64,000 nt of DNA, taken from assembly GCA_016700315.1 (NCBI GenBank), contig CP065013.1, forward strand, positions 257,449 through 321,448. Reading direction: 5' to 3'. Positions 2,176 through 56,584 of this stretch are shown piece by piece. Source of the DNA: Candidatus Saccharimonadota bacterium (GTDB lineage: Bacteria; Patescibacteriota; Saccharimonadia; Saccharimonadales; SZUA-47). The position numbers and the translations under genes were made by a program. Positions within the stretch are counted from its first letter, which is position 1. Every line of letters begins with the position of its first letter. The notes under the pieces were generated by a model. It did no database searches and was not told the DNA's origin. It saw only the letters and a list, made by a program, of their open reading frames with translations.

Positions 2176-3102
2176 ATGCTTTTTAGTAAACTAAAAACCG
2201 ACTTTCTGGAATATCTCGAGATTGAGCAGGGACGCTCACAAGCCACAATCAAAAACTACGACTTTTACTTGTCTAGGCTGATTGACTTTGAAGGTGATTT
2301 TGAGATAGAGCTGCTGGACGGCGAAATGGTAAGAAAGTGGCGGCTATGGCTAAACCGACTCGGTACTGCCACCAGTGACGAGCTGCAAAAAAACACTCAG
2401 AATTACCATCTGATAGCTCTAAGGGGATTTCTAAAATTCTGCGCCAAGCGTGACATAAAAGCTTTACCACCAGAGAAGATTGAGCTAGCAAAAGCCAAAC
2501 CAAAGCAGGTGACTTTTCTGAACGAAGAAGAACTGGAAAGACTTTTCAACATCCCAAAGCTAGACACCAAATCGGGCCTTCGTGACCGAGCTATCCTCGA
2601 GCTTCTTTACTCTAGCGGCTTGCGTGTTTCAGAGCTCACTGGGCTCAACCGCGACCACATCAACCTCAAGCGGCGCGAGTTTATGGTACGCGGCAAAGGG
2701 CAAAAGGACCGACCAATATTTATCAGCGAATCAGCCTCGTGGTGGCTTCAGAAGTACCTCGATAAGCGCGACGACAATGCACCTGCTCTTTTTATCCAGT
2801 ACAGCGGTAAATCAAGCAGTACAGACAACAGCGGCAGTTACCGCCGCCTCACTCCGCGCAGTGTCCAGCGCATGGTAAGCAAATCTGCCCTGCTCGCTGG
2901 CATAACAAAACACGTAAGTCCTCATACTCTCAGACATAGCTTTGCGACCGACATTCTAATGAACGGCGGCGACTTGCGTTCTGTCCAGGCCCTACTCGGC
3001 CACAGCAACATCTCTACCACCCAGATCTACACTCACGTCACTGATCCACACCTAAAAGCTGTCCACGACAAGTTCCACAAGGATATTAAGAGTAGCACTT
3101 GA
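2176..3102 (+). CDS. Tyrosine site-specific recombinase, XerC/XerD family
   Basis: C-terminal catalytic region HTLRHSFATDILMNGGDLRSVQALLGHSNISTTQIYTHV (R..HxxR..Y) and an N-terminal SAM-like domain. Confidence 0.9.
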   Translation: MLFSKLKTDFLEYLEIEQGRSQATIKNYDFYLSRLIDFEGDFEIELLDGEMVRKWRLWLNRLGTATSDELQKNTQNYHLIALRGFLKFCAKRDIKALPPEKIELAKAKPKQVTFLNEEELERLFNIPKLDTKSGLRDRAILELLYSSGLRVSELTGLNRDHINLKRREFMVRGKGQKDRPIFISESASWWLQKYLDKRDDNAPALFIQYSGKSSSTDNSGSYRRLTPRSVQRMVSKSALLAGITKHVSPHTLRHSFATDILMNGGDLRSVQALLGHSNISTTQIYTHVTDPHLKAVHDKFHKDIKSST

Positions 3103-15655: not shown

Positions 15656-15683
15656 AAGCTATTTCATGCAAAGCCTGAAATTA

Positions 15684-16162
15684 GCTAGTCCCTAGACCCT
15701 TGTCGGTTGTCCCTAGTTATCAAGCTAGACTTTTAGAAAGCTTAGTCAGCATTTTTTGTATAATCTCTAGTTCTTCAATTATTGCGGCTATTCCAATTTT
15801 ATAAATGTCTTCAACCATTATTAGTTGGGTCTCTAGTTCTGCGGCAGAGCCCGATGCTATTCGCAAGAAATGTTTAAACTCTTTGTCATTCCTCCTCCTA
15901 TAGCCCTCTGCAATATTTGAAGGTATGCTCACGCTCGATCTCTTCATCTGAGAAGATAGTGCAAAGTCTTCTGTCTTTAGCAATTTTCTACATACTAAGT
16001 ACACTTCCTTGACTAGCGATCGTGATCTTTGCCACACTTTAAGATCATTAAAGTTTTTATCCATAAACCAAATATAGATTACAAAGTAGGGATAAACAAA
16101 AGCGCTACGCGCTATCCCGTCATAAACGGCTACGGACTAGGGACTACTAGCTAGGGTCTAGC
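15684..16162. mobile_element. Four-helix-bundle gene cassette bracketed by inverted heptamer arrays
   Basis: Left array GCTAGTCCCTAGACCCTTGTCGGTTGTCCCTAGTTA (15684-15719). Right array GGCTACGGACTAGGGACTACTAGCTAGGGTCTAGCC (16128-16162). They share reverse-complementary TAGTCCCTAG / CTAGACCC words. Confidence 0.65.
15720..16064 (-). CDS. Four-helix-bundle protein (TIGR02436 / '23S rRNA intervening-sequence protein' family)
   Basis: LKVWQRSRSLVKEVY...SQMKRSSVSIPSNIAEGY.R....F..FLRIASGSAAELETQL is the family signature. Confidence 0.88.
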   Translation of the reverse strand: MDKNFNDLKVWQRSRSLVKEVYLVCRKLLKTEDFALSSQMKRSSVSIPSNIAEGYRRRNDKEFKHFLRIASGSAAELETQLIMVEDIYKIGIAAIIEELEIIQKMLTKLSKSLA

Positions 16163-19300: not shown

Positions 19301-20173
19301 CTACATCTCTCTAGCATTTATTCTAGAAATCGCCCCAGCCCGCACAGGGTAAAGATTCGCATCGCTGTATGGGTCTACACTGATGTTTGCTTTGAGTCCG
19401 TTTTGGACAGGCGCTGGGTGAGCTTCGTCCCATTTAGCCCTAGCATAGGCATCTAATGCGCCTGCTTGGCTAGAATTTAGTTCATCTTCTATGCCCGTAA
19501 AGCGAAACATCTGGCCGTAGTTGGTGTCTATACCTTCTTTATCAGAAGCAGGTTCAATAAACTTTAGGTCGCAGCGCTTAGCAATCGCTACCGCTTCTGG
19601 GCTGCCATCTACCTTAACCACATCACCTTCTTTGTTTCGGTGGTACATCTTAGTAAACAAACTCTTAGCTAGCTCTGGTTCGCCCTGCTGTCCGGCACAT
19701 AGTTCGGCTACTCTTTCTTCAAAGGTTGGGGCTTGGGTGGTGGTAGTGGTGTTAGCGGAGTTCTTCTTGGTGGATTTAGTTGTGCCGCCAGAGCTATTGC
19801 CATTGTTGCTTCCGCCGCCGTTGCCGCCGTTATTACCACCGCCATTGTTACCACCGCCTTGTGGCTTAGTGGTTGTGGTGCGAGGTTTGGTGGTGGAGGT
19901 GCGAGGGCGGGTGGTGGAGGTGCAGACTAGTATAATACCGCCATACTCATCCGTCGTCTGCACACACCCCTCAACCCGTTTCTCTGGTTGTAGTACTTGT
20001 GGGGCTTCTTGAGCTATTGCTTGAGCAGTCGGCACACCGAGTATTGGCGTTAGCACCATACCGGCTCTCAATAACAAGCCTTTTGGTTTCTTAGATTTGC
20101 TAACTTCAGCCATAGGCATAGCACCCATCTCTGGGGATCGTGATAATTCGTTGCTTCTGTTGCTTGCACTCAT
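19301..20173 (-). CDS. Secreted protein with T/P/R and G/N low-complexity linker, unknown C-terminal domain
   Basis: Hydrophobic N-terminal segment, a TSTTRPRTSTTKPRTTTTKPQGGGNNGGGNNGGNGGGSNNG linker, and a good AAGGAG Shine-Dalgarno sequence upstream of the start. Confidence 0.65.
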   Translation of the reverse strand: MSASNRSNELSRSPEMGAMPMAEVSKSKKPKGLLLRAGMVLTPILGVPTAQAIAQEAPQVLQPEKRVEGCVQTTDEYGGIILVCTSTTRPRTSTTKPRTTTTKPQGGGNNGGGNNGGNGGGSNNGNSSGGTTKSTKKNSANTTTTTQAPTFEERVAELCAGQQGEPELAKSLFTKMYHRNKEGDVVKVDGSPEAVAIAKRCDLKFIEPASDKEGIDTNYGQMFRFTGIEDELNSSQAGALDAYARAKWDEAHPAPVQNGLKANISVDPYSDANLYPVRAGAISRINAREM

Positions 20174-20563
20174 GGCTTTCTGCTCCTTACCTGAGACTTG
20201 GGGGGGTTTCTGCTCAGATGATTAGTTAACTTAACTTTGGTCTATCGGTGCTAGCGGGCATTTTACTGTCCCTTGCTGACTGCTTGTACCGATCTTTTTT
20301 TGGCACGTTTTGAGCGTTCGGGCTCTAAGTTTCACAGTTAGTTTACTTTTTCCAGCAGCCTTGTTTACTTACTAAACAACCAGCTACCGAAATACTGACT
20401 AACCTTAACCTTAAAGCACACCCCAACTATACCACACCCCCACCCCCGTTGTCAATAGCCCGATTCTAGCAATTAGCGGGAACGGTAACCTTTACTTATG
20501 ATCTAATGCGCCCCTCGCCTTCCATTACCTCCCACCCAACACCCCTACAGCCAACCTTCATGT

Positions 20564-20599
20564 ACGACATGTTTGCCACGATCGTGGTTTTTATGTCGT
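20564..20599. repeat. Palindromic hairpin element copy 2 (left arm variant ACGACATGTTTGCCACGA)
   Basis: The right arm is identical to copy 1. The left arm has GTTTG in place of AAAAA, giving a U-U internal loop. Preceded by a C-rich tract. Confidence 0.85.
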
Positions 20600-20785
20600 C
20601 TTTTTATACTCACACCCCTGTAATTCACAAGGTAGACCAGGCTGCTTTCACGACTGTCACTACGACTAAGGCGCAGTCAAAACGCTAACCGTTATGCATT
20701 TATCCACCATTTTGCTTATGTTTTACCCAGACTTATCCATACCCCATCCCCACCCCACCAAACACCACTACACCTCCCTTCACGT

Positions 20786-20803
20786 ACGACATGTTTGCCA
20801 CGA
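20786..20803. repeat. Half-copy of the palindromic element (left arm only), preceded by C4 runs
   Basis: ACGACATGTTTGCCACGA is identical to the left arm of copy 2 and is followed by CCAAGCG instead of the right arm. Confidence 0.75.
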
Positions 20804-20852
20804 CCAAGCGTTTTCTTGTAGGCTTCTTGGCTTTCGTATATTTTTTTGTTCG

Positions 20853-21602
20853 CTATACACGTTTACTACCCTCGACTAAGCCGAGTGAAGACTTTTGACT
20901 CAGGAAGTCAGATGTCTCATTAACCGCACGAGCTAACGCTCTCTCGGGTTCAAGATTATTGATTAAACCACTTACATACTCTGCGAAAAATGTGTCGCCT
21001 GCTCCTATAGTATCTCTTAACCCTTCAACTACATTAGACGGTACGAAATATCTTTGTGAATTGTAAAATAGCTCTACTCCAAATATACCATCTGTGATTA
21101 TTAGCATTTTCTTTTTTTGTTCTTCGACAACAGTTTTTGGTATATAACGCATTTCTTCCCTAGTACCTTTTAAGCAAAATATGCTTTTAGAAACCTCTTC
21201 TGCTGCTAACCAATTTTTTTTCCGGCCAAAAAAATCTCCATCTCTTACATAACCTTGTATATCTAAGAAAACAAGACTGTTATGAAAGTCCACGCTAGAA
21301 AGATCCCACTCATCTGATACTGTCGATACTACCACCCATTTTGCTAGTTTAATGTCTATTGTCTTACGTATCTGTCTAGGTTTTTTTATTACCCGACCTT
21401 TTTCGCCATCTCTAGTGACCAGAATTTCTACCTCCAAACTCTTACAAAGAGCGTCGTCAAACGGCACGAAGTTTTTCGAGAAGACACGTTCTAAGAAATA
21501 TGCTGGACCTCGGTAACTATCTTCCAGTAAATCTCCAGACTCACTAATAACTATGTCCCTACTCCGAGTAGAAATAATATAGACTCTGTCACTCTTATTC
21601 AT
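20853..21602 (-). CDS. PfkB-family carbohydrate/nucleoside kinase-like protein (short)
   Basis: C-terminal IGAGDTFFAEYVSGL is the PfkB signature-2 (GAGD). At 249 aa it is shorter than ribokinases. Confidence 0.65.
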   Translation of the reverse strand: MNKSDRVYIISTRSRDIVISESGDLLEDSYRGPAYFLERVFSKNFVPFDDALCKSLEVEILVTRDGEKGRVIKKPRQIRKTIDIKLAKWVVVSTVSDEWDLSSVDFHNSLVFLDIQGYVRDGDFFGRKKNWLAAEEVSKSIFCLKGTREEMRYIPKTVVEEQKKKMLIITDGIFGVELFYNSQRYFVPSNVVEGLRDTIGAGDTFFAEYVSGLINNLEPERALARAVNETSDFLSQKSSLGLVEGSKRV

Positions 21603-23775: not shown

Positions 23776-24514
23776 GTCAACATAAAAACCACGACCAAAG
23801 GTTTTTATGTTGACTTATAGGGGTAAGACTACTAACATGCGGGTATTATGGGCAGCGGGAATGCGAGAAAGATTAAGCCGAGCAGGCTCAGACCAAGGAG
23901 CCCTAGCAAGGAGCTTACTTCTAAAATAATTGAGTCCGTCTTGAGAGCTAGCGTTTTAGCTGGTTTTACCGCTTCTGCACTACTGATACCAAACTCTCCT
24001 ATCGCCCTAGAGAAACCAGTTAAATTCTTCCTAGATAAATTGGATCAGAAAGAAAAAGAGCGCCAAATCCGCCGCGTAATTACTGAGATGAAACGGCAAA
24101 AAATCGTCAAAGGAAGCTACGAACATGGTCTTGAGATAACCAATAAAGGACGCGAGCGACTAGCAAAACTAGATTACGACAAACTCGAGATATCTGAACC
24201 ACCTTCTTGGGATAAAAAATGGCGCATAGTACTCTTCGACATTCCTTTTAACAAAGATGAGAAACGTAGAGATTTGTCAGAGAAACTAAAACTAACTGGG
24301 TTTCAGTTACTCCAGCTTAGCGTATGGGTGCATCCGTACCCCTGCCGCGATGAACTAAACAAAATATGTGAGCACTTAGGTGTTGCTAAGTATGTTACCC
24401 TCATAGAAACTGCCCACATTGACCACGAAGAATTACTAAAAAAGCGCTTCAAAAATCTCAAATTACAGTAGTGTGTCAACATAAAAACCTTTGGTCGTGG
24501 TTTTTATGTCGTAC
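23776..24514. mobile_element. Single-gene cassette bounded by 35-bp perfect terminal inverted repeats, each itself a hairpin
   Basis: Left GTCAACATAAAAACC-ACGACCAAA-GGTTTTTATGTTGAC (23776-23814). Right GTCAACATAAAAACC-TTTGGTCGT-GGTTTTTATGTCGTAC (24475-24514). The loops are reverse complements, and 23780-23814 is the exact reverse complement of 24475-24509. Confidence 0.7.
23848..24471 (+). CDS. PaaX-like regulator (winged helix plus Cas2/VapD-fold C-terminal domain)
   Basis: WDKKWRIVLFDIPFNKDEKRRDLSEKLKLTGFQLLQLSVWVHP matches the PaaX C-terminal pattern (W..W.lv.f.ipe..R..R..L...GF..l..svWv.P). A wHTH-like region lies upstream. Confidence 0.65.
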   Translation: MGSGNARKIKPSRLRPRSPSKELTSKIIESVLRASVLAGFTASALLIPNSPIALEKPVKFFLDKLDQKEKERQIRRVITEMKRQKIVKGSYEHGLEITNKGRERLAKLDYDKLEISEPPSWDKKWRIVLFDIPFNKDEKRRDLSEKLKLTGFQLLQLSVWVHPYPCRDELNKICEHLGVAKYVTLIETAHIDHEELLKKRFKNLKLQ

Positions 24515-24588
24515 ATTAGCTGTGTGAGCTAGAAGTACCCAATGGTTCTAGGGATGCTGCTTACGAAATTTATAACTTTGAAGATAGC

Positions 24589-26026: not shown

Positions 26027-26082
26027 CTTGATACTTTATCCCTGATACTTGATACTAGTTATTATGAGTTTACAGATTGGGA
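26027..26082 (+). repeat. 56-bp direct repeat, copy A: decayed duplicate of the ychF promoter-proximal region and first 6 codons
   Basis: CTTGATACTTTATCCCTGATACTTGATACTAGTTATTATGAGTTTACAGATTGGGA differs from copy B (28110-28165) at 3 of 56 positions. Confidence 0.92.
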
Positions 26083-28109: not shown

Positions 28110-28165
28110 CTTGATACTTTATCCCTCATACTTGATACTAGTTATTATGAGTTTATCGATTGGGA
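28110..28165 (+). repeat. 56-bp direct repeat, copy B: functional ychF 5' region
   Basis: See copy A. Contains the heptamer array GATACTT TATCCCT CATACTT GATACTA and the ychF ATG at 28147. Confidence 0.92.
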
Positions 28166-33169: not shown

Positions 33170-33543
33170 TTAAAGAATCTTTTCACCGTTAACCTTTATG
33201 AGTTTTATTAAAGCCGCTTTTAGTTCTTCTACTTTTGATATTAACTCTGCTTCCAAAACGCTAGAAAGGTAGTTTGTTTTTTTGATATTCCTATCTGAGC
33301 TTCTAGTTCAAATAATGAGCCGAGTGCATGTCGATAAAACTGCTCTTTCTCTCTGGCACTTCTTCTGCCAAAGCCTTCTGCGATATTAGATGGCAAAGAT
33401 ACAGCAGCTCGTCTCATTTGCGAAATCAAGCCAAAAACTTCTTCTTTAGGAAAAGCCGAAGTAACTTGGTAGACACTCAGACAAATAGACTCCGAAATCT
33501 GCCAAACCCTTAAGTCTTTAAAGGACTTTATCGTCGTACTCAT
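33170..33543 (-). pseudogene. Four-helix-bundle protein gene with a -1 frameshift in an A7 run (or homopolymer sequencing error), between ssb and rpsR
   Basis: LRVWQISESI...SQMRRAAVSLPSNIAEGFGRRS...ALGSLFELEAQ is the family signature. After the A7 run (T7 at 33277-33283 on the plus strand) the +1 frame stays open for 37 codons (KTNYLSSVLEAELISKVEELKAALIKLIKVNGEKIL-stop at 33170-33172), restoring a typical ~124-aa length. Confidence 0.6.
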
Positions 33544-37331: not shown

Positions 37332-37344
37332 AGTACTTCACTTA

Positions 37345-37425
37345 CGCTTCAGAGGACAACTACGTTTTCCTCTGGTCGCTCCGGGCAAAAAGCGTCGTTT
37401 TTGCTCGGGCTACTCTTTTCCTTTT
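37345..37425 (-). repeat. Two-hairpin intergenic element, copy B (between rnj and ftsK)
   Basis: AGAGGACAAC-TAC-GTTTTCCTCT and GCAAAAA-GCGTCG-TTTTTGC followed by GGCTACTCTTTTCC. Alignable with copy A at 40735-40826. Confidence 0.75.
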
Positions 37426-37518
37426 TTAATACTGTTACAGTATACCGCTTATCTTAAATTTCAGATATACCGAATGTTGTAATAATAACAAAATTCTTAT
37501 GCTTTGTCAACTGATTGA

Positions 37519-39633
37519 TCAGTCTACTCGGGCGTCTTGGCCTAGCAGGCTGGCCCGCATTTTGGCGAAGCGCTCCTGCTGTTCGGCGGCAATTTGTTCA
37601 GGCGTTTTTGGTTCCGGCTTTGACTCGCCTACCGCATTTTCTGCTACTAGTTGCCCTGCACCGACCGTGCCATTTGCGTTCTTGACGCTACTGTTGCCAA
37701 CCACGTTGACTACCGGTATGACGATCGGGCTGCGCTGAGTCTGCTCGTACAGAAAATGTGTAACGTAATCCTTGAGCTCGGCTTTGAAACGATCTAGATC
37801 AACTCTCTTGTAGCGCTGCTGAACCGCCCGGCGAAGTTCTATTCTAAACAAATTCATCAACTCTTCCTGGCCGCGCATGTAGATGAAGCCGCGGCTAATA
37901 ATATCTGGGCTAGTAAGCAGCTGCCCCGTTTTCTTATCAATTGTTAAGATGACCGCTACAAGTCCTTCCTCGCTCAATACTAGGCGATCTTTGACCACCA
38001 CACTGTTTACGATTGCACCTGTTTGATCAACCAAAACTGTACCAACTGGCACTTCTCCGATTACCTCCATCTTGTCTCCGTTGATTGCTACAACTTGACC
38101 ATTTTCGGCATTGAGACAGTTGCTTCTCGGTACACCTAGCTCGACTGCAAGATCAATATGGCTTTTCTTGCTGCGGATTGAACCGTAGATTGGCAAGAAA
38201 AACTTAGGACGAAGCATCTGGATCATCTCGGCGTACTCGTCTCGACTTGCATGACCCGAAACATGTAGCGGTCCAACCTTATCTAACTCATGAGTCATGT
38301 GCTGAAAAACGTGAACACCCATACGCACCATGTTGTCGACCATACCGCCGATAAGTGCGTCGTTTCCGGTCTCTGGGATTGGCGTACTTGAAAGCACAAC
38401 CGTGTCTTGCTCTTTAAGCTTAATATGCTTGTGAGCGCCGCTAGCCATACGCTGCAGCGCCGAATTTGGTTCGCCTTGACTACCCGTACAAACCACTACT
38501 ACTTCGTGATCTTTCATGGTTGGGACGGCACTGATCGGCACGATTGTGCCTTTCTGAATCCTGACAAAACCGTGACGAATCGCCATTTCAAGTGTGCTAA
38601 TTAGACTGCGACCATCAAGTGCGATCTTTTTGTTGTGGTGAATCGCAGCGTTGATGATCATTTGAATACGGTTGATATTGGTAGAAAACATCGACATGAA
38701 ACAGCGTCCTGGCGCATTCTCCATAATGTCGATGAAGCTCTGCTCGATTGTCGATTCGCTAGGGGTGCGGCCCAATCGCTCAGTTGTTGTACTCTCGCTC
38801 ATAAGTAGCAGTACACCTTCGCGGCCAAGCTCGGTTAGCCTTTCCATGTCAGAGCGTTCGTGATCGAGCGGATTTGGGTCAAAACGGAAGTCGCCGGTGT
38901 TTATCACACGTCCAACCGGAGTATCTAGCACTACTACAGTACTGCCTGGAATAGAGTGAGTGATACGCACTAACTCGACAAAAAAGACTCCAACTTTTAG
39001 TTTTTCGTGGGTGTTCTCGTTCATGGGTACTACTTCGAGCTTGAAGCCTTCTGGCATAGGCAGGCCAAAGTTCTCGAAAATTTCCTGCACGCGCCCACAA
39101 GTAAATCGGCTACCATAAACTGGCGCTGGATACTTAGGAATGATGTGCGGCAAAGCCCCAATGTGATCAAGGTGCCCGTGAGTTATAACGTAGCCTTTTA
39201 TCTTGTGCTTGATAGTATCTAGATAGCTTGTATCGCAGATGCCATAGTTGATACCAGGCAGGTCAACCCCAAGGTCGTTACCCGCGTCAATGATAACCGC
39301 ATCGTTTTGGTACTCAACAAGCATCATGTTTTTGGAGCCACCACCGTCCATACCACCCAAGCCGATTACCTTCAGTCTAGGACTGTCATCTATGAAATTT
39401 GCTCGGCGTGGCTGGTTGCCATTTTGGGCCGGTGTGTCGTACAACTTTGCGATTCGGTCAGCATCTTCGTGAGCACGTTTTTGGGCTCTGATAGCTTCGC
39501 CGCGGCTTGCCGCACGAGCCTGAGGCGTCGTCCGAGGTCTAGCCTTAGCAGGCGCGTTCTGCCCCTGTTTTGGTGCTGAGTTTCTCGGGCGATTACCGCC
39601 ACCAGAACGGTTTTGTTTAAAATTGTTATTCAT
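37519..39633 (-). CDS. rnj: Ribonuclease J with basic N-terminal extension and extended C-terminus
   Basis: Metallo-beta-lactamase motif ITHGHLDHIGALP and beta-CASP region. About 90 aa of R/N/Q/G-rich N-terminal low complexity. Confidence 0.88.
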   Translation of the reverse strand: MNNNFKQNRSGGGNRPRNSAPKQGQNAPAKARPRTTPQARAASRGEAIRAQKRAHEDADRIAKLYDTPAQNGNQPRRANFIDDSPRLKVIGLGGMDGGGSKNMMLVEYQNDAVIIDAGNDLGVDLPGINYGICDTSYLDTIKHKIKGYVITHGHLDHIGALPHIIPKYPAPVYGSRFTCGRVQEIFENFGLPMPEGFKLEVVPMNENTHEKLKVGVFFVELVRITHSIPGSTVVVLDTPVGRVINTGDFRFDPNPLDHERSDMERLTELGREGVLLLMSESTTTERLGRTPSESTIEQSFIDIMENAPGRCFMSMFSTNINRIQMIINAAIHHNKKIALDGRSLISTLEMAIRHGFVRIQKGTIVPISAVPTMKDHEVVVVCTGSQGEPNSALQRMASGAHKHIKLKEQDTVVLSSTPIPETGNDALIGGMVDNMVRMGVHVFQHMTHELDKVGPLHVSGHASRDEYAEMIQMLRPKFFLPIYGSIRSKKSHIDLAVELGVPRSNCLNAENGQVVAINGDKMEVIGEVPVGTVLVDQTGAIVNSVVVKDRLVLSEEGLVAVILTIDKKTGQLLTSPDIISRGFIYMRGQEELMNLFRIELRRAVQQRYKRVDLDRFKAELKDYVTHFLYEQTQRSPIVIPVVNVVGNSSVKNANGTVGAGQLVAENAVGESKPEPKTPEQIAAEQQERFAKMRASLLGQDARVD

Positions 39634-40469: not shown

Positions 40470-40658
40470 TTACTTTCTACTGACCAAACTGTAAAGATTT
40501 TTTAGCGTAAGGTATGCGAACAAAAAGAACGGTACGTACCAGATTAGGCCGCGGTCAATCGCGATGCTGGCGAACAAGTAGGTTAGTGCAGCATAGACCA
40601 AAACCCTAACTAGTGTTTTCTTGGTATTAGCCTGATTAACTACTTCTACTTTTGCCAT
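40470..40658 (-). CDS. Small two-TM membrane protein (62 aa)
   Basis: GAAGGGG Shine-Dalgarno sequence upstream. Two hydrophobic helices. Confidence 0.5.
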   Translation of the reverse strand: MAKVEVVNQANTKKTLVRVLVYAALTYLFASIAIDRGLIWYVPFFLFAYLTLKNLYSLVSRK

Positions 40659-40686
40659 CTGTACGCCCCTTCTATACTCTATAAAA

Positions 40687-40826
40687 TTACTTTTCTACAG
40701 CTTTCATTGACAATTTGCTGCGGCCTTTGTCGCCTTCGGCTTTTGAGGACAACCTACGGTTTTCCTCAACGCGCAGTGCAAAAAAATGTGATTTTTTGCT
40801 CTGGCTACTCTTTCCCCTTAAATACA
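40687..40826 (-). repeat. 48-bp duplicate of the pnp 3' end (40687-40734) plus ~92-nt two-hairpin element, copy A (40735-40826)
   Basis: TTACTTTTCTACAGCTTTCATTGACAATTTGCTGCGGCCTTTGTCGCC matches pnp 40827-40874 with 3 mismatches in 48. Element hairpins are GAGGACAACC-TAC-GGTTTTCCTC and GCAAAAAAA-TGTGA-TTTTTTGC. Confidence 0.88.
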
Positions 40827-42980
40827 TTACTTCTCTACAGCTTTCATTGACAATTTGCTTCGGCCTTTGTCGTCGATACCGACTAGTTTAACATCTACAA
40901 TGTCGCCAACTTTGACAACATCGCTCGGTTTCTCGACACGCTCGTTTTTCATCTCGCTGACATGTACTAAACCCTCTTGACCCTTCATAAATTCTACGAA
41001 TGCGCCGAAATCTAAGACGCTAACAACACGCGCTCCACGGTAAACTTTGCCAACTTCTGGCTCGGCTGTAAGGCTTTTGATCCACTCAAGCGCTTTTTCG
41101 ATCGCCTCAGTATTAACTGCAGCGACTGTAATCAAACCAGTGTCTTTGATGTCGATCTCAGCGCCTGTTTCTTTGGTGATTGCGTTGATTGTTTCACCAC
41201 CCTTACCAATAACAGCACCGATTTTCTCTGGGTTGATCATAATTTTCTCAATCCTTGGAGCGTGTGGGCTTAGACTAGCCCGAGGTCTGCCTAGGGTGCT
41301 TAACATGTGCCGTAAAATCTCAGCACGGCCTTCCTTGCCCTGCTCTAAAGCTTTTCGCAGAACCTCAACAGGCAAGCCGTGAACTTTCATATCCATCTGC
41401 AGAGCTGTGATACCCTTGTTGGTGCCTGCCGTTTTGAAGTCCATGTCACCTGCGAAATCTTCAGCGTCAGCAATATCACTCATGACGTAGGCATTGTCGC
41501 CGTCCATCATCAGCCCCATCGCAATACCAGACACTGGAGCTTTGAGGGGCACACCTGCATCCATAAGCGCCAGACAGCTGGAACAAGTCGCAGCCATGCT
41601 GGTACTACCGTTTTGGCTCATAATTTCTGTAACCGATCGAATAGCGTACGGAAAGTCTTCTTCGCCTGGTAGAACTGCAGTTAAGGCTCTTTCAGCGAGG
41701 TAGCCATGACCAATTTCACGACGTCCCGGACTACCAAGTCGGCGGACTTCGCCAACAGTGTATCCTGGAGCGTTATAGTGGTGCATATAACGGCGTTCAC
41801 CGTCACTTACTTCCATTGTGTCGACGATTTGGGCGTAGCTAAGCGGTGCGAGCGTTACGATGTTCATACCTTGAGTCACGCCTCGAGTAAACAAGCTCGA
41901 ACCGTGCGCTCTTGGCAAGATACCAACTTCGCTCGACAGCTGCCTAATCTCAGTTAGCTTACGGCCGTCAGGGCGAGTTTGGCTTTTTACAATACCATCA
42001 CGTACGTCTTTGTGAAGCGCCATAGTAAAGGCTTCATCGTATTCATCCCGCAGATCAGCGTAGTTCTCGCCGACTTTTTCAGCCATTTGCCCGTGAAAAT
42101 CCCAGCGAAGCTCGTTGATCATTTCGTTGCGTTCAGGGTAAGGACGGTGGAGTTTTTCGCCCAGCTTTCCTTCTACCCATGCATCAACTGCGCCCTGGAT
42201 CTCGTCATTTGGCTTGACTAGCTCGTACTCCAGCGGCTCTACACCAACTTTGGCGACTAGTTCTTTTTGAATCTTAAAGGCTGGAGCCATTTCGTTTAGA
42301 GCCCACTGCATGGCCTCTAAGACTTTTTCTTCGCTGACTTCATTAGCGCCCGCTTCTACCATCATAATGCCGCCTTCGCGGGCCGCAACTACTAGATCCA
42401 GCTCGCTAGCTTTCATCTCTGCATAGCTCATAAATGCCTTGAACTGGCCACTGTCATCTAGGCCGACTCGAAGTCCGGCAACTGGGCCGTCGAACGGTGC
42501 ACCTGTGAGCATAAATGCTGTACTCATGGCGATCATTGCCACCATGTCTGGCCTAAAGCTTGGGTCGCTGCTCAAAACACTAGCGACACCTTGTACTTCT
42601 TGTCGGTAGCCCTTGGGCCAAAGAGGTCGGATTGGTCGATCAATCAGCCGTCCGATCAAAATCGCCTCTTCACTTGGGCGACCTTCGCGCTTAATAAAGC
42701 GACTACCGCTGATTTTGCCTGTAGCGTAAAATTTTTCTTCGTAGTCGATGCTTAGCGGGAAATAGTCCATGCCGCTGATAGGTCGATTGCCAACCATGGC
42801 GGTCCCTAGCACAACCGTGTCGCCGTAGCTTACGAGAACACTTGAGGTACTCCTAAAACCAACGCGGTTGATTTCTAACTTTAGCTCTCGGCCGCAAAGC
42901 TCGGTGCTAACACTTATTATTTCTTTACCCTGGGGATTTATTGTCATTTTTTCCTTTTCCTTTTCGAAGTTTGGGCGCAA
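40827..42980 (-). CDS. pnp: Polyribonucleotide nucleotidyltransferase (PNPase)
   Basis: Two RNase PH domains plus KH and S1 domains (GKVYRGARVVSVLDFGAFVEF). The true start may be Met12 (42947). Confidence 0.94.
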   Translation of the reverse strand: MRPNFEKEKEKMTINPQGKEIISVSTELCGRELKLEINRVGFRSTSSVLVSYGDTVVLGTAMVGNRPISGMDYFPLSIDYEEKFYATGKISGSRFIKREGRPSEEAILIGRLIDRPIRPLWPKGYRQEVQGVASVLSSDPSFRPDMVAMIAMSTAFMLTGAPFDGPVAGLRVGLDDSGQFKAFMSYAEMKASELDLVVAAREGGIMMVEAGANEVSEEKVLEAMQWALNEMAPAFKIQKELVAKVGVEPLEYELVKPNDEIQGAVDAWVEGKLGEKLHRPYPERNEMINELRWDFHGQMAEKVGENYADLRDEYDEAFTMALHKDVRDGIVKSQTRPDGRKLTEIRQLSSEVGILPRAHGSSLFTRGVTQGMNIVTLAPLSYAQIVDTMEVSDGERRYMHHYNAPGYTVGEVRRLGSPGRREIGHGYLAERALTAVLPGEEDFPYAIRSVTEIMSQNGSTSMAATCSSCLALMDAGVPLKAPVSGIAMGLMMDGDNAYVMSDIADAEDFAGDMDFKTAGTNKGITALQMDMKVHGLPVEVLRKALEQGKEGRAEILRHMLSTLGRPRASLSPHAPRIEKIMINPEKIGAVIGKGGETINAITKETGAEIDIKDTGLITVAAVNTEAIEKALEWIKSLTAEPEVGKVYRGARVVSVLDFGAFVEFMKGQEGLVHVSEMKNERVEKPSDVVKVGDIVDVKLVGIDDKGRSKLSMKAVEK

Positions 42981-48591: not shown

Positions 48592-48628
48592 ACATATAGG
48601 TTATAGCTAAAACGCAGCACATAAAAGT

Positions 48629-48770
48629 GCTAGAGCTTCTCCTGGCAGCTCGGGCACAGATGTGTGCCTCGCCCAGCAGGGTTTGTTCTAGGAGGGGCAC
48701 ACCCCTCCGCTTCAAAACTGAAGTAAATTCAGTTTTTCGCCCTCCCCCTAAAGGCAGTGCTTACAGCTCT
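48629..48770 (-). repeat. ~50-bp duplicate of the mutM 3' end (48629-48678) plus ~92-nt two-hairpin element, copy C (48679-48770)
   Basis: CTGGCAGCTCGGGCACAGATGTGTGCCTCGCCCAGCA is identical in both copies (second copy at 48781-48817). The duplicate keeps frame and stop (…GRGTHLCPSCQEKL-stop versus …CQQL-stop). Hairpins are GGAGGGG-CACA-CCCCTCC and AAAACTGAA-GTAAA-TTCAGTTTT. Confidence 0.88.
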
Positions 48771-48771
48771 G

Positions 48772-49743
48772 CTAGAGTTGCTGGCAGCTCGGGCACAGAT
48801 GTGTGCCTCGCCCAGCAACTCTTGTTTTAATGATGGTGGTTTGGCAGCGTGGGCACGGGGCACCTTCTTTGCGGAAGACTCTAGCGAAATCTATGTAACT
48901 TCCCCGCTTGCCTTCAGCGTTGACATAGTTACGGTCGGTGCTGCCGCCTTTTTCGATCGACAACTTGAGTACATAAATAATTTCAGAGTGCAGCTTAGTC
49001 AGTCTGGCATTTGAGAGATCCCGGACCAAGCTTGCCGGATGAATACTAGACCCCCAAAGCGATTCGTCAGCGTAGATATTGCCCACTCCTGCCAGAACTG
49101 TTTGATCCAAAAGCGCCGCCTTAATGCTGCTATTTTTGCGCTTTTGCAGTCTTTTGATTAAGACTTTGGGCATAAAATCTTCTTCTAGCGGTTCAGGCCC
49201 AACCTTTTTCATAAAATCAATTTCGGCGACAGCAATCGTCGGCATTAACCTTACCCAGCCAAACTTACGCTGGTCATTGAAGTATAGGTGCTCGCTATCC
49301 CCAAGAAAGAAATCTACCCTTGTCGATTTATCGGGCAGGTTACCTACTAGCGAATTGTTTGGATGCCCAGCCCCAAACCGAGTCTCTGTCTCGGAAAATT
49401 CTAAATCATGAGGACCATATCCTAAATTTTTTTCTTTTTTGTTTTTATTATTTTTTAGAATTTCGGATTTAGATTTTAGGGTTTTTCTTTGTCCGACAAA
49501 GACTAGTTGCCCTGTCATTTTAAGATGAATAACAAAAGTGTAGCCAGTCGACAAATCGATCATCAAAACTTTAGCTCGGCGACGCACATCAATAATTTTG
49601 GCGCCGATTGCAAACTTACTTACCTCTGTTTCTGGGTTTGGGAAGCTTTTTGCCCAGTCGTGAGTAATTTTTGTGATCGACTTACCAACAATCAAACTAA
49701 CTAGTCCGAGTCGGACGGTTTCAACTTCAGGCAGCTCTGGCAT
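48772..49743 (-). CDS. mutM: Formamidopyrimidine-DNA glycosylase
   Basis: MPELPEVETVRLGL N-terminus, H2TH region, and C-terminal zinc finger CPRCQTTIIKTRVAGRGTHLCPSCQ. Confidence 0.9.
   Translation of the reverse strand: MPELPEVETVRLGLVSLIVGKSITKITHDWAKSFPNPETEVSKFAIGAKIIDVRRRAKVLMIDLSTGYTFVIHLKMTGQLVFVGQRKTLKSKSEILKNNKNKKEKNLGYGPHDLEFSETETRFGAGHPNNSLVGNLPDKSTRVDFFLGDSEHLYFNDQRKFGWVRLMPTIAVAEIDFMKKVGPEPLEEDFMPKVLIKRLQKRKNSSIKAALLDQTVLAGVGNIYADESLWGSSIHPASLVRDLSNARLTKLHSEIIYVLKLSIEKGGSTDRNYVNAEGKRGSYIDFARVFRKEGAPCPRCQTTIIKTRVAGRGTHLCPSCQQL
49454..49481. repeat. Intragenic heptamer array in mutM: TTTAGAA TTTCGGA TTTAGAT TTTAGGG
   Basis: Read directly. Same unit family as the intergenic array at 3233-3260. 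Translated as KTLKSKSEILK. Confidence 0.88.
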
Positions 49744-55039: not shown

Positions 55040-55073
55040 GAAGGAAAGGGTGGGCTTCTCTAAGCCTTCTGGA

Positions 55074-55514
55074 TCAACTGTTCAAACCGCTATCACTGTC
55101 TTGACTATGTTTGCCAGTTCCTACAACATATAAATTCTTTGCGGCCTCATAGCCTGTGGCACCGTGTCTACCAGTTACGGGTGAGGTCGGCTTAATGTCT
55201 GTTGCTCCATTACGAGCTGCTTCGCCACTGAGAGAGCCAGGTTTTGCGACTGGCGCACTATTTCTACCTTTGTTTGGATCATCAACATAGGACATAGTGG
55301 TGGGCTTTTTCCCTAAGCCTTCTGGATCAACTGTTCGGAAAATAGGAGGTTCTCCGGAGCTATCACTGTCTTGACTATGTTTGCCAGTTCCTACAACACT
55401 TCTAGCCTTTTGGGCTGCTAATCTAGCAGTTTGGTTAATTCTCAATACTGTTGGGTCGTCCACTTTGGCTCCTTTGTTTGTTTTGTTACTTTTGTGCTTT
55501 ACTTTGTGTTTCAT
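55074..55514 (-). CDS. Basic low-complexity protein with internal repeat VVGTGKHSQDSDS...TVDPEGL
   Basis: ORF containing two copies of an ~80-100-nt module (55299-55398 and 55049-55128). Confidence 0.5.
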   Translation of the reverse strand: MKHKVKHKSNKTNKGAKVDDPTVLRINQTARLAAQKARSVVGTGKHSQDSDSSGEPPIFRTVDPEGLGKKPTTMSYVDDPNKGRNSAPVAKPGSLSGEAARNGATDIKPTSPVTGRHGATGYEAAKNLYVVGTGKHSQDSDSGLNS

Positions 55515-55519
55515 TTTTA

Positions 55520-56584
55520 TTACCTCACCACATTTCTACGTACTGGGCTAACAGGTAGCGGCGAGTCGTTTTTGCCAAAAATTGCATTTTTAGAATGTTT
55601 GTCGTAGGCGGCAGCCTTAGTGACCCATTGTTCAAAGGCTTTCTTTTTCACTGGGTCCGCGTTGATTTCTTTGAGTTTGTTTTCATTGTTAGTCGCACCT
55701 TTTACCCATGTTTCAAAGGCCTTCTTTTTGGCTGGATCCGCGCTAATTTCTTTGAGTTTTTGTGCTTGCGCAGCTGACAATGTAGAAGATTTGAAGTTCT
55801 TCATGCTTTGGCTTTCAGAGCCGCGCTGAGTCAGCGCCGAATGGTTCTCGACCATCATCTTGTTCCAGGCTTTTTGCTGATCTGGCGTTAACTTGCCATA
55901 GGCATTAGCAAATTTATCTAAGTCATTTCCAGTAATTTTCTTGTCTTTGCCATTAGCGTCTTTAATAATAATTGTTTTATTAGCGCCCGGCGCTCCGGGG
56001 TGTTGGCCCTGTCCAATTGTAGTTGACCCAGATCCGCCACTTTTGTTTGCTTCTATCCATTTATCTCTTTGTTCGGGTGTTAGCTTGTTGAGCGTTGCGG
56101 CAAACTTGGCTACGTCACTTTTGTTCAAAGTCTGACTGTTAACCGTGATTTTGTCGTCTTTGGGAGGTACTTGACCACCGTTTTTGGCCATGGCTTCGAA
56201 GTCTTTCCACCTCTGGCTGGGCTGATTGTGATGAGCCATCGCCCAAGAGCTGTCGGCGGCAATACGACTCATTTTTTGGAAGGCTTCCCACTCTGCATCA
56301 CCCCAGTACTTAGTGTCTTTGTTGAACTGAGCGATCTGCTCTTTACTGTGACCTCCCGGATGCTGACCTGGTGCAAACTTCAGTTCGCGGTTCGGCTGGC
56401 GAAGGTTCCAACTATCTGCCGATTTAAGTCCCGTACCGCTAATGTGCGTGTCACCACTTGGGGCTGGTTTATTGTCCATAGGCTTTGTTAGCTTGAGACC
56501 GCTTTTAGCACTAAGCATAATTGCAGCCGAGCCAGCTGCCGAGTTCATAAATTGATTTGTAGTTGAATTTCGACGTTTTGTCAT
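55520..56584 (-). CDS. K/G/P/N-rich hypothetical protein (354 aa) with helical repeats
   Basis: Repeats KFAATLNKLTPEQRDKWIE / KFANAYGKLTPDQQKAWNK and ADPAKKKAFETWV / ADPVKKKAFEQWV. No signal peptide. Confidence 0.6.
   Translation of the reverse strand: MTKRRNSTTNQFMNSAAGSAAIMLSAKSGLKLTKPMDNKPAPSGDTHISGTGLKSADSWNLRQPNRELKFAPGQHPGGHSKEQIAQFNKDTKYWGDAEWEAFQKMSRIAADSSWAMAHHNQPSQRWKDFEAMAKNGGQVPPKDDKITVNSQTLNKSDVAKFAATLNKLTPEQRDKWIEANKSGGSGSTTIGQGQHPGAPGANKTIIIKDANGKDKKITGNDLDKFANAYGKLTPDQQKAWNKMMVENHSALTQRGSESQSMKNFKSSTLSAAQAQKLKEISADPAKKKAFETWVKGATNNENKLKEINADPVKKKAFEQWVTKAAAYDKHSKNAIFGKNDSPLPVSPVRRNVVR

Follow-up and report, generated by a model that had tools for sequence, protein, structure and literature searches.

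The pnp locus

The 64-kb window analysed here (the whole stretch of DNA taken from contig CP065013.1 of a Candidatus Saccharimonadota bacterium) carries, directly behind the stop codon of pnp, the gene for polynucleotide phosphorylase (PNPase), a 92-nt insert that is flanked on both sides by a copy of the 3' end of that gene. We use the name E for the dispersed element of ~85-93 nt of which this insert is very probably one copy, and E_pnp for that copy. The features of the locus are as follows:

40827..42980, minus strand: pnp (polynucleotide phosphorylase), 717 codons from a TTG start, from the list of open reading frames (ORFs) and Pfam; 706 aa in public annotations
40826..40874, minus strand: copy 1 (T_L) of the pnp 3' end, with the last 15 codons, TAA and 1 extra nt; the functional gene end, from a repeat search and strain polymorphism
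40735..40826, minus strand: E_pnp, 92-nt insert; covariance-model match at 40736-40821, 87-90 bits, E-value ~1e-22
40771..40805, minus strand: predicted helix 1 of E_pnp, with the conserved outer stem GCCAG/CUG-GC and a variable apical hairpin, GCAAAAAA-UCACAU-UUUUUUGC
40743..40769, minus strand: predicted helix 2 of E_pnp, UUGAGGAAAACC-GUA-GGUUGUCCUCAA
40686..40734, minus strand: copy 2 (T_R), the displaced pnp pseudo-end with its own TAA, from a repeat search
40687..40827, minus strand: 46-codon mini-ORF, from translation; its ATG overlaps the pnp TAA (TAATG), and it runs through E and continues across copy 2, in the native pnp frame, down to the duplicated TAA
40470..40658, minus strand: 62-codon gene downstream of pnp, from the ORF list

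Pfam recognised two RNase_PH domains, a KH domain and an S1 domain in the pnp product, and since the S1 domain extends to residue 713 of 717, the repeat at the 3' end concerns the true end of the gene. The protein is identical to P0003, annotated as PNPase in Ca. Saccharibacteria, and ~75% identical to many proteins from Candidatus Saccharibacteria metagenome-assembled genomes (MAGs). On the minus strand the gene ends with ...GAC GAC AAA GGC CGA AGC AAA TTG TCA ATG AAA GCT GTA GAG AAG TAA. The initial annotation had stated that 40827-40874 recurs at 40687-40734 with three differences, two of them synonymous, and with the stop kept, and this was reproduced both by direct reading and by an independent repeat search, which gave 47 nt at 96% identity (40826-40872 vs 40686-40732, spacing 140). 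The differences are G/A, A/C and A/G: GAG/GAA and CGA/CGC are synonymous, and GAC/GGC changes Asp to Gly at the upstream edge. Between the two copies, E_pnp is predicted to fold as two neighbouring hairpins (-26 kcal/mol; z = -3.05 for the gene strand, -3.85 for the opposite one).

The duplication and the insert were found together in all of the eight independent same-species assemblies that were compared (from NCBI, ENA, JGI and Logan). An empty site, which had been proposed as a check, is present in the relative L083, whose PNPase is 84% identical: there, the pnp stop is followed by 14 nt and then by the ATG of the same 62-codon gene. Among 80 other Saccharibacteria pnp loci (3,535 ORFs, 1.46 Mb), no duplicated gene end was found save one marginal case. 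Considering the empty site in L083 together with these 80 loci, the empty state is ancestral, while the insert and the duplication are a derived gain. The 48-bp flanking repeat at pnp is a true duplication of the target, and the claim that a discrete ~92-nt two-hairpin element lies directly behind the pnp stop is borne out by the fold, by the family matches described below and by the empty site.

Among the eight strains, segregating sites are found at 57 of 702 third codon positions of pnp and at 11 of 1404 first and second positions. Copy 1 has 2 such sites in 48 (both synonymous), E_pnp has 1 in 92 and copy 2 has 5 in 48; by our own binomial calculation, a count of at most 1 in 92 has a probability of ~0.004 if sites segregate as often as at third positions. 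Conservation thus applies to the element but not to the displaced gene end: copy 2 looks neutral. The place of the CGA/CGC variant is not fixed, one strain having it in copy 1 and another in copy 2.

A pair of near-identical repeats that encloses hairpins at the end of a gene might also come from a diversity-generating retroelement, from a plain tandem duplication or from an assembly artefact, and the window does hold genes for Avd-like 23S_rRNA_IVP proteins. Against a retroelement of this kind, however, the differences G/A, A/C and A/G are not adenine-specific, there is no reverse transcriptase (RT) gene among the neighbours and the targets are housekeeping genes. Nor is the insert a diverged copy of a flank, as a plain tandem duplication would have it, since its alignments to the upstream gene and to the region beyond copy 2 were no better than those of shuffles. 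An artefact is contradicted by the eight independent assemblies. We thus see next to no chance for any of these three explanations.

A family of two-helix elements

A peptide search with the 46-codon mini-ORF returned two related small ORFs, one at the rpsQ-rplN junction (L093) and one behind rplF, and the two corresponding copies are ~85% identical to the pnp insert at the nucleotide level, with compensatory changes. A degenerate pattern made from the three copies led to 11 further metagenome loci. The first covariance model was built from an 11-sequence alignment, which gave a two-helix consensus, and covariance searches returned 23 matches (22 distinct sequences, 32-103 bits) in metagenomes and MAGs. 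The models R1 and R2 mentioned below were both built here, and their E-values are rough; membership by R2 required that a match span the full length, with the two helices and the invariant outer stem GCCAG/CUG-GC present. Both E_pnp (87 bits) and a copy in the ftsK leader (61 bits) gave such a match. The unfiltered full model gave three matches on the gene strand of the window: pnp (87 bits), the ftsK leader (61 bits) and a region behind mutM (15.7 bits).

The pairing in this family is strongly supported. In the alignment, 96.8% of cells are paired, compared to 33-48% after sliding the partners by 1-3 columns; compensatory changes are seen at 19 of the 23 base pairs (10/12 in helix 1 and 9/11 in helix 2), and none of 500 shuffles reached the observed score. 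The counts of G-U cells (6) and A-C cells (2) do not decide between RNA and a single strand of DNA. The consensus starts with a purine-rich 5' tail, AAGGGAAAAGAGCA, followed by helix 1, a linker G and helix 2 (UUGAGAAAAACC-loop-GGUUUGUCUCAA). In helix 1, the invariant outer stem GCCAG...CUG-GC encloses a freely co-varying hairpin with a GAAUUYAYUUC-like tip (gene strand), and in the window species a short tail, AAGSCRAAGS, follows helix 2. Copies from the same genome share private variants, namely GAGUAGCC and helix-2 GAGGAAAAC..GUUGUCCUC in the window species, and A-run helix tips in L093.

The second copy of the window, absent from the initial annotation, lies between rnj and ftsK:

37343..37426, minus strand: ftsK-leader copy of the family in the rnj-ftsK spacer, ending 11 nt before the ftsK ATG; 46-61 bits (61 with R2)

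Its orthologues in L083 and L047 have outer stems that change in a compensated manner (GCCCG/CGG-GC, GGCCA/UGGCC and GUCCG/CGG-AC among the three species), and no flanking duplication was detected when its 90-nt flanks were aligned. Upstream of this copy, a promoter-like TTGACA-17-TATTAT was noticed by eye.

Rfam release 15 returned only the tRNA-Arg when the whole window was searched at gathering thresholds, and only chance matches to eukaryotic long non-coding RNA or microRNA families when the pnp and mutM regions were searched at E-values up to 10. We found no description of the element in the literature on repeats, miniature inverted-repeat transposable elements (MITEs), hairpins or non-coding RNA of Saccharibacteria and the candidate phyla radiation (CPR), and two insert-specific plus two family patterns had zero matches in IMG/VR viral contigs. 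Promoter and terminator scans of the pnp and mutM sites revealed no terminator in either insert, the sole terminator-like hairpin lying after copy 2 of the mutM end. Altogether, the family is apparently an undescribed structured motif with strong covariation.

A duplicated gene end at mutM

When each ORF end of the window was compared with its downstream 450 nt, pnp and mutM were the only genuine genes with a duplicated 3' end; a third high score came from a spurious ORF on the opposite strand of an internally repetitive gene. The features at mutM are:

48772..49743, minus strand: mutM, with Pfam domains Fapy_DNA_glyco, H2TH and zf-FPG, the last extending to residue 322/323
48770..48829, minus strand: copy 1 of the mutM 3' end, ...AGRGTHLCPSCQQL, with the stop TAG at 48772-48774 plus 2 nt, from a repeat search and translation
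48691..48769, minus strand: insert of ~79-81 nt with two predicted hairpins, without the conserved outer stem; fold z = -2.6 and -4.0
48628..48690, minus strand: copy 2 of the mutM 3' end, ...AGRGTHLCPSCQEKL, then a stop, from a repeat search

The mutM repeat spans 49 nt at 90% identity (48781-48829 vs 48642-48690, spacing 139) and grows to ~60/63 nt (48770-48829 vs 48628-48690) if an in-frame indel of 3 nt is allowed. Its two copies share an identical core of 36-41 nt with diverged flanks, and the indel results in ...CQQL-stop in one and ...CQEKL-stop in the other. MutM homologues did not reveal which copy is ancestral, their C-terminal tails being too variable.

The same geometry as at pnp had been claimed for this locus, and that holds for the gene-end duplication. 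The insert, on the other hand, measures ~79-81 nt rather than 92 and does not align to the pnp insert, with a local alignment no better than those of shuffles (p ~0.3). Its match to the family model is weak (48683-48751, 13-16 bits, E-values of 0.014-0.067; with R2, 15.7 bits and ~0.014), ranking third among the window matches with R2 and fifth with R1. Its apical sequence, GAAUUUACUUC, is nevertheless that of the family consensus, and the overall layout is kept. We regard the insert as probably related to the family, in a degenerate or divergent form, rather than as an established member of it.

In the strain L086 (4228-4541, ENA ERZ28655916), the mutM array has three cores, of which the middle one belongs to a chimeric copy, and two inserts, whereas elsewhere it consists of two cores and one insert. 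This indicates that the L086 array arose by unequal crossover and that copy number varies among strains, unless it is an assembly effect. The chimeric L086 copy and the swap of the CGA/CGC variant at pnp both indicate that repeat copies exchange sequence.

Flanking duplications originate from each target

We then considered the flanks of the whole family, aligning 90 nt on either side of each copy. Clear direct repeats are present at four protein-gene junctions, with 47 nt at pnp, ~48-60 nt at mutM, 34 nt at rplF (CGGTAAATCAGGGAAGGATAAATAATGATGTTTG vs CGCTAAAACAGGGAAGGATAAATAATAATGTCTG) and 27 nt at rplC. The remaining junctions show similarities of 8-16 nt over the Shine-Dalgarno sequence, the stop and the ATG, some of which could be convergent signals instead of duplications, and the flanks of leader, tRNA and antisense copies show nothing above background. 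The expectation that repeats of 45-55 bp would be the rule is therefore not borne out, since the range in the family goes from none through 8-16, 27, 34 and 48 to ~60 nt. A mechanistic ruler of ~140 bp was also discarded: the periods of 140 at pnp and 139 at mutM are a coincidence, with 122 at rplF and 116 at rplC.

Each clear repeat is made of the end of that site's own upstream gene, and no core is common to pnp, mutM, rplF and rplC, showing that the duplicated segment is derived from the target and not brought by E. Its right edge lies ~0-7 nt from a stop or start codon at each duplication, while its left edge is variable. In the ~1.8 Mb surveyed, gene-end duplications of such size were found only around E. 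We are highly confident that the pnp insert belongs to the family, that it was gained at pnp and that the duplication originates from the target.

These observations bear on two classical explanations. In the first, the locus would be the scar of a site-specific integrative element that brought a surrogate pnp 3' end, with the repeats as attL and attR and the 92 nt as a remnant. Both copies do keep the frame and the stop, a tyrosine recombinase gene is found at 2176-3099, and the identical 36-41-nt core of mutM, with its diverged flanks and the chimeric middle copy of L086, resembles the anatomy of att sites. But gene conversion or unequal crossover between copies accounts for an identical mutM core with diverged edges, making att sites unnecessary, and the sole recombinase of the window (XerC/D-like) lies 38 kb away from an insert of 92 nt that has no match in IMG/VR. 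Moreover, the sites share no core, the repeats vary in length and are missing at leader and tRNA copies, and the family carries no gene-end sequence. The related claim that the element carries a surrogate gene end also fails, since the rplF and rplC copies are flanked by their own gene ends and copy 2 at pnp evolves neutrally. We consider such a scar extremely improbable.

In the second explanation, E would be a MITE or a palindrome-associated transposable element (PATE) moved by a DDE or HUH transposase (IS200/IS605, RAYT), with the long repeats being unrelated tandem duplications. This would fit with an element that is small, hairpin-forming, multicopy and intergenic, and one strain (L089) has an rve-family gene. 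Insertion sequence (IS) and MITE families make target duplications of fixed length, 2-14 bp, and the statement that ~48 bp exceeds what these families make stands when compared with that range. E shows no such fixed short duplication, however, and gene-end duplications are restricted to its surroundings. It also lacks terminal inverted repeats (5' AAGGGAAAAGAG and 3' ..CUCAA are not complementary, and in the alignment of 22 distinct copies neither are 5' AAGGGAAAAGAGCA and 3' ...GUCUCAA plus tail), and its helix tips co-vary freely, unlike ends that a transposase recognises. No Y1/RAYT match was found by Pfam among the window ORFs scanned, and no transposase in the window. This explanation is very unlikely, if marginally less so than an integrative scar. 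More generally, a target-derived segment that measures 0 to ~60 nt depending on the site fits neither a transposase with a fixed stagger nor recombination at a conserved att core.

Distribution and orientation of the copies

E is present in some Saccharibacteria genomes only, and nearly all of its copies lie directly at gene boundaries. They occupy ribosomal protein (r-protein) junctions (L3-L4, L23-L2, L22-S3, S17-L14, L6-L18, L36-S13 and S11-S4), sites upstream of rpsJ and ftsK, and sites at a distance of 2-9 nt from tRNA genes. Not all genomes have the same sites filled: in L093, the S17-L14 and S11-S4 junctions and the site upstream of rpsJ are filled, whereas L3-L4, L23-L2, L22-S3, L6-L18 and L36-S13 are empty there, with stop and ATG abutting, and filled in L096, L102, L101, L094 and L097. 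By their L2/L18 cluster names, L102 and L094 are Saccharibacteria, L094 being the window species. The sequence of the source genome that we examined comprises the window and ~20 kb of r-protein operons, and these operons hold one copy, at rplF-rplR. In 1.42 Mb of other Saccharibacteria loci, only 2 matches were found. This patchy distribution, the turnover of sites and the similarity of copies within a genome are as expected from copying to new sites.

As to orientation relative to transcription, which had been suggested as a check, ~18 of the 22 copies are co-oriented with both neighbours, and two (L098 and L104:7834) run antisense to theirs. The distance between the end of a copy and the tRNA 5' end or start codon that follows is 2-12 nt.

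In three short Logan/ENA contigs (L090, L091 and L092), rplF and the 5' half of its element are joined to the 3' half of the pnp element, copy 2 of the pnp end and the 62-codon gene. We do not regard these joins as a rearrangement, given that longer contigs of the species have rplF-E-rplR; they are most likely assembly chimeras across 37 nt common to the two copies (or rare recombinants).

An open reading frame through the element

The mini-ORF at pnp was called as a gene in every strain assembly, and the same arrangement is found at all of the 10 junction copies: an ATG lies at or overlaps the upstream stop, and the frame is open through E over 32-46 codons. It then ends overlapping the next ATG or at most 5 nt from it, slightly past it in one case, and at the duplicated native stop at pnp. 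Leaving mutM aside, the other three sites with long duplications have a period equal to 2 modulo 3, so that copy 2 is read in its native frame and ends at the native stop. In helix 1, the variable stretch is 21 nt long in a tRNA-leader copy, whereas junction copies have 19 or 22 nt, two lengths that are 3 nt apart. A mini-ORF profile run against 1.84 billion cluster representatives gave 23 distinct short ORFs of 33-60 aa, once two long proteins without the motif (P0244 and P0264) were set aside as spurious. Most of the mini-ORFs have 4-12 residues after the element, the pnp tail of 15 residues being at the long end.

We do not think that the peptide is the functional unit: its invariant stretches lack synonymous variation, helix-1 codons change by compensating pairs and the tRNA-leader copy is frame-shifted. 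The lack of synonymous variation and the compensating helix-1 codons indicate that the constraint acts on nucleic-acid structure. The open frame would rather reflect a requirement for ribosomes to traverse the element.

Such a constraint is also what one would expect if E were primarily a cis-acting RNA module of the host, controlling processing, stability or translation, from leaders or between cistrons, at growth-related genes such as those for r-proteins, tRNAs and FtsK, with new copies made rarely by ordinary duplication or recombination and with incidental gene-end duplications, an explanation that overlaps with the one that we favour below. It would account for the strong covariation and the invariant unpaired bases, for the ftsK-leader orthologue that three species kept with compensatory changes, for the low polymorphism in E_pnp, for the co-orientation of ~18/22 copies with flanking genes and for their ends 2-12 nt before tRNA 5' ends or start codons. 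It would account less well for the occupancy of r-protein junctions, which varies by genome, for the likeness of same-genome copies and for only 2 matches in 1.42 Mb of other Saccharibacteria loci. High-scoring copies (L098 and L104:7834) are antisense to their neighbours, the same element is translated at junctions and untranslated in tRNA leaders, and no Rfam family matches it. We regard E as primarily a host module of this type as a possible but rather unlikely explanation.

How E may have reached the pnp junction

Considering all these observations, the explanation that we favour, with confidence slightly better than even, is that E is dispersed by copying, that the duplications are derived from each target through copy choice or staggered breaks, and that selection for coupling between neighbouring genes shapes what is retained. 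At pnp, E very probably entered the junction with the 62-codon gene after the split from the relative with 84% identity, and it would have been copied from another copy in the genome, as the copies share lineage-specific bases and one of them lies 3.3 kb away. This insertion would have duplicated 47-48 nt of the target, up to 1 nt past the pnp stop. With the duplication ending there, pnp is left whole by copy 1, and the next gene retains its native context thanks to copy 2. The route may have been copy choice (template switching) or the repair of variably staggered breaks, and selection would then retain only those insertions in which the stop of the upstream gene and the translation start of the downstream gene are both maintained and the frame across E stays open; such a frame would let ribosomes pass from the upstream gene to the next.

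Copy choice or staggered breaks as the actual route is a tentative proposal, which falls short of an even chance. We prefer it over an RNA-mediated route because no RT was found in any fetched locus and because the donor copy would lie only 3.3 kb away. Among the three mechanisms put forward in the initial annotation, template-switch repair or another non-canonical insertion is still viable, while the analogy with integrative elements was lost for lack of a shared core and because the repeats are target-derived. Five routes fail on the features that were tested: a fixed-stagger transposase, an att-core recombinase, a surrogate end borne by the element, a diversity-generating retroelement and a plain tandem duplication.

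An RNA-mediated route would make E similar to a short interspersed nuclear element (SINE), with an RT provided in trans and synthesis that is target-primed or jumps between templates. Duplications of variable length, from 0 to ~60 nt, are natural for such mechanisms, the conserved structure is RNA-like and the orientation within transcription units is mostly sense. Insertions are always a few nt from a stop or a start, and RNA 3' ends at terminating ribosomes could explain the sites at stop codons. Yet no RT is found in the window or in the annotations of fetched loci, the copies lack the A-rich or other 3' tail that is typical of retroposed copies, antisense copies exist, and the G-U (6 cells) versus A-C (2) counts leave the strand undecided. 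We therefore consider a SINE-like retroelement improbable. Somewhat less improbable, but still unlikely, is a broader proposal in which E represents a new kind of mobile element, which inserts precisely behind stop codons by an RNA or template-switching route that uses the terminating ribosome or the mRNA end as a landmark, and which brings about gene-end duplications of up to ~60 bp and a coupling mini-ORF. If true, this would be an insertion mechanism with a host accommodation that is undescribed for IS, MITE, repetitive extragenic palindromic (REP) or integrative elements.

Dispersal by copying with target-derived duplications also has to face several points that weigh against it. There is no confirmed donor, intermediate or enzyme, and the window has neither an RT nor a transposase, only the XerC/D-like recombinase. 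High-scoring leader, tRNA or antisense copies (L098, L103 and L104) are without a flanking repeat; a duplication is thus not obligatory and could be selected later rather than made at insertion. The longest duplications (pnp and mutM) are found where a spacer existed and none was needed, so that selection alone fails to explain their length, and right edges at ~0-7 nt from a stop or start are not predicted by random template switching; neither route explains them. Purifying selection on E and the conserved ftsK-leader orthologue are at least as compatible with a host function as with a selfish element. Finally, the survey covers part of the source genome (the 64-kb window and ~20 kb). Since E is under purifying selection, an additional role in cis within the transcript is probable; as for a cis-function that serves the host, which is compatible with either route, we see the chances as evenly balanced.

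Other repeats and variable regions

Several other features of the window and of the strains were noticed. A 56-nt direct repeat at 95% identity (26027-26082 and 28110-28165) duplicates the upstream region of ychF and its first 6 codons (ATG at 28147), and flanks a 2,027-bp segment with a 628-codon ORF on the minus strand. It is the third insertion of the window with a duplication of ~50-60 bp, with unrelated content. No empty site was found for it, as all same-species contigs carry the segment. The 628-codon ORF was considered as a recombinase and rejected, having no Pfam, PADLOC or PDB match; by eye, it contains a putative Cys/His/Asp transglutaminase-like motif.

Between rnj and ftsK (~37492-37521), other strains hold a 991-bp segment with an AstE/AspA-like gene on the opposite strand (L081 15427-16417; L089 5842-7869) that the window lacks, and L089 additionally has its rve-family integrase gene there. 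The JGI contig L088 (4093 onward) departs from the window at 40519, inside the 62-codon gene, into a cluster of methyltransferase and glycosyltransferase genes, which is either a strain-specific island or the sign of a chimeric contig.

An unrelated palindrome of ~40-46 nt (ATGTACGACAT..CCACGATCGTGG..ATGTCGT) is present in 3-4 copies (2073-2118, 20560-20605, 20777-20814 and 24473-24518), two of them inside a gene-free stretch of 680 nt (20173-20853) with further internal repeats. The 23S_rRNA_IVP genes, which encode Avd-like four-helix bundles, lie at 15720-16064 and 33241-33543, and the S10 operon of the same species has a further one (L105 1999-2214), located between rpsJ and rplC but on the other strand. 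Heptamer-like repeats were seen at 15676-15716, beside the first of these genes, and at 1-150, near tRNA-Arg. The minus-strand ORFs 55074-55514 and 55520-56584 contain 56-57-nt direct repeats (55056-55415 and 55623-55759, spaced by 270 and 81 nt); these are internal protein repeats, unrelated to E.

Comparison with known repeats and significance

E is a small non-autonomous structured repeat, unusual in its gene-end duplications and in its coupling mini-ORF. It resembles the REP elements and bacterial interspersed mosaic elements (BIME) of enterobacteria, enterobacterial repetitive intergenic consensus (ERIC) sequences and the Correia elements (NEMIS) of Neisseria, which are also hairpin-forming and multicopy, measure 35-150 nt, lie behind stops or between operon genes, are present on mRNA and vary in occupancy among strains. 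These elements have recognisable inverted ends and a target duplication that is absent or of 2 bp (TA, for Correia), and REP sequences have a RAYT partner. E, in contrast, has two unrelated helices, invariant unpaired bases and duplications of 8 to ~60 nt that rebuild a gene end, and it is translated at junctions. Rickettsia palindromic elements are likewise small structured repeats of a reduced genome, and their open frame makes them tolerable within translated sequence. They lie in frame within genes, whose protein products then include them, and come without long target duplications, whereas E is located after a stop codon and is read as a mini-ORF of its own, connecting two genes.

Prophages at icd and islands at tRNA or tmRNA genes also leave a repeat of tens of bp over a gene 3' end, with the gene intact and a pseudo-end downstream. 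In these systems (phage 21 and e14 at icd, for example), the repeat is carried by the element as attP and is constant for each integration, and an integrase is encoded; the repeats around E come from each target and vary in length, and its 92-nt insert has no gene. Variable and also long duplications around a copy of a sequence present elsewhere are made by the target-primed reverse transcription of SINEs and long interspersed nuclear elements (LINEs), and by fork stalling and template switching (FoSTeS) or microhomology-mediated break-induced replication (MMBIR), processes described mainly in eukaryotes. Unlike in these processes, no RT, tail or junction microhomology was demonstrated for E. 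Compared with integron attC sites, which form a single imperfect hairpin with R''/L''-L'/R' boxes in cassette arrays close to an integron integrase, E has two helices and flanks core housekeeping genes in conserved synteny; the box consensus of attC was not formally scored.

The genomes of Saccharibacteria and other members of the CPR are tiny and so tightly packed that nearly every insertion would be expected to disrupt some gene or operon. E illustrates one way in which an insertion may be harmless, through duplication of the upstream gene's end and a small open frame that hands ribosomes over to the next gene. Long and variable duplications that end at a stop are unlike the products of known transposase or integrase mechanisms, so that these organisms may gain sequence by some other route. 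In a phylum with hardly any known regulatory RNA, a motif found in r-protein, tRNA and ftsK leaders is a concrete target for work at the RNA level.

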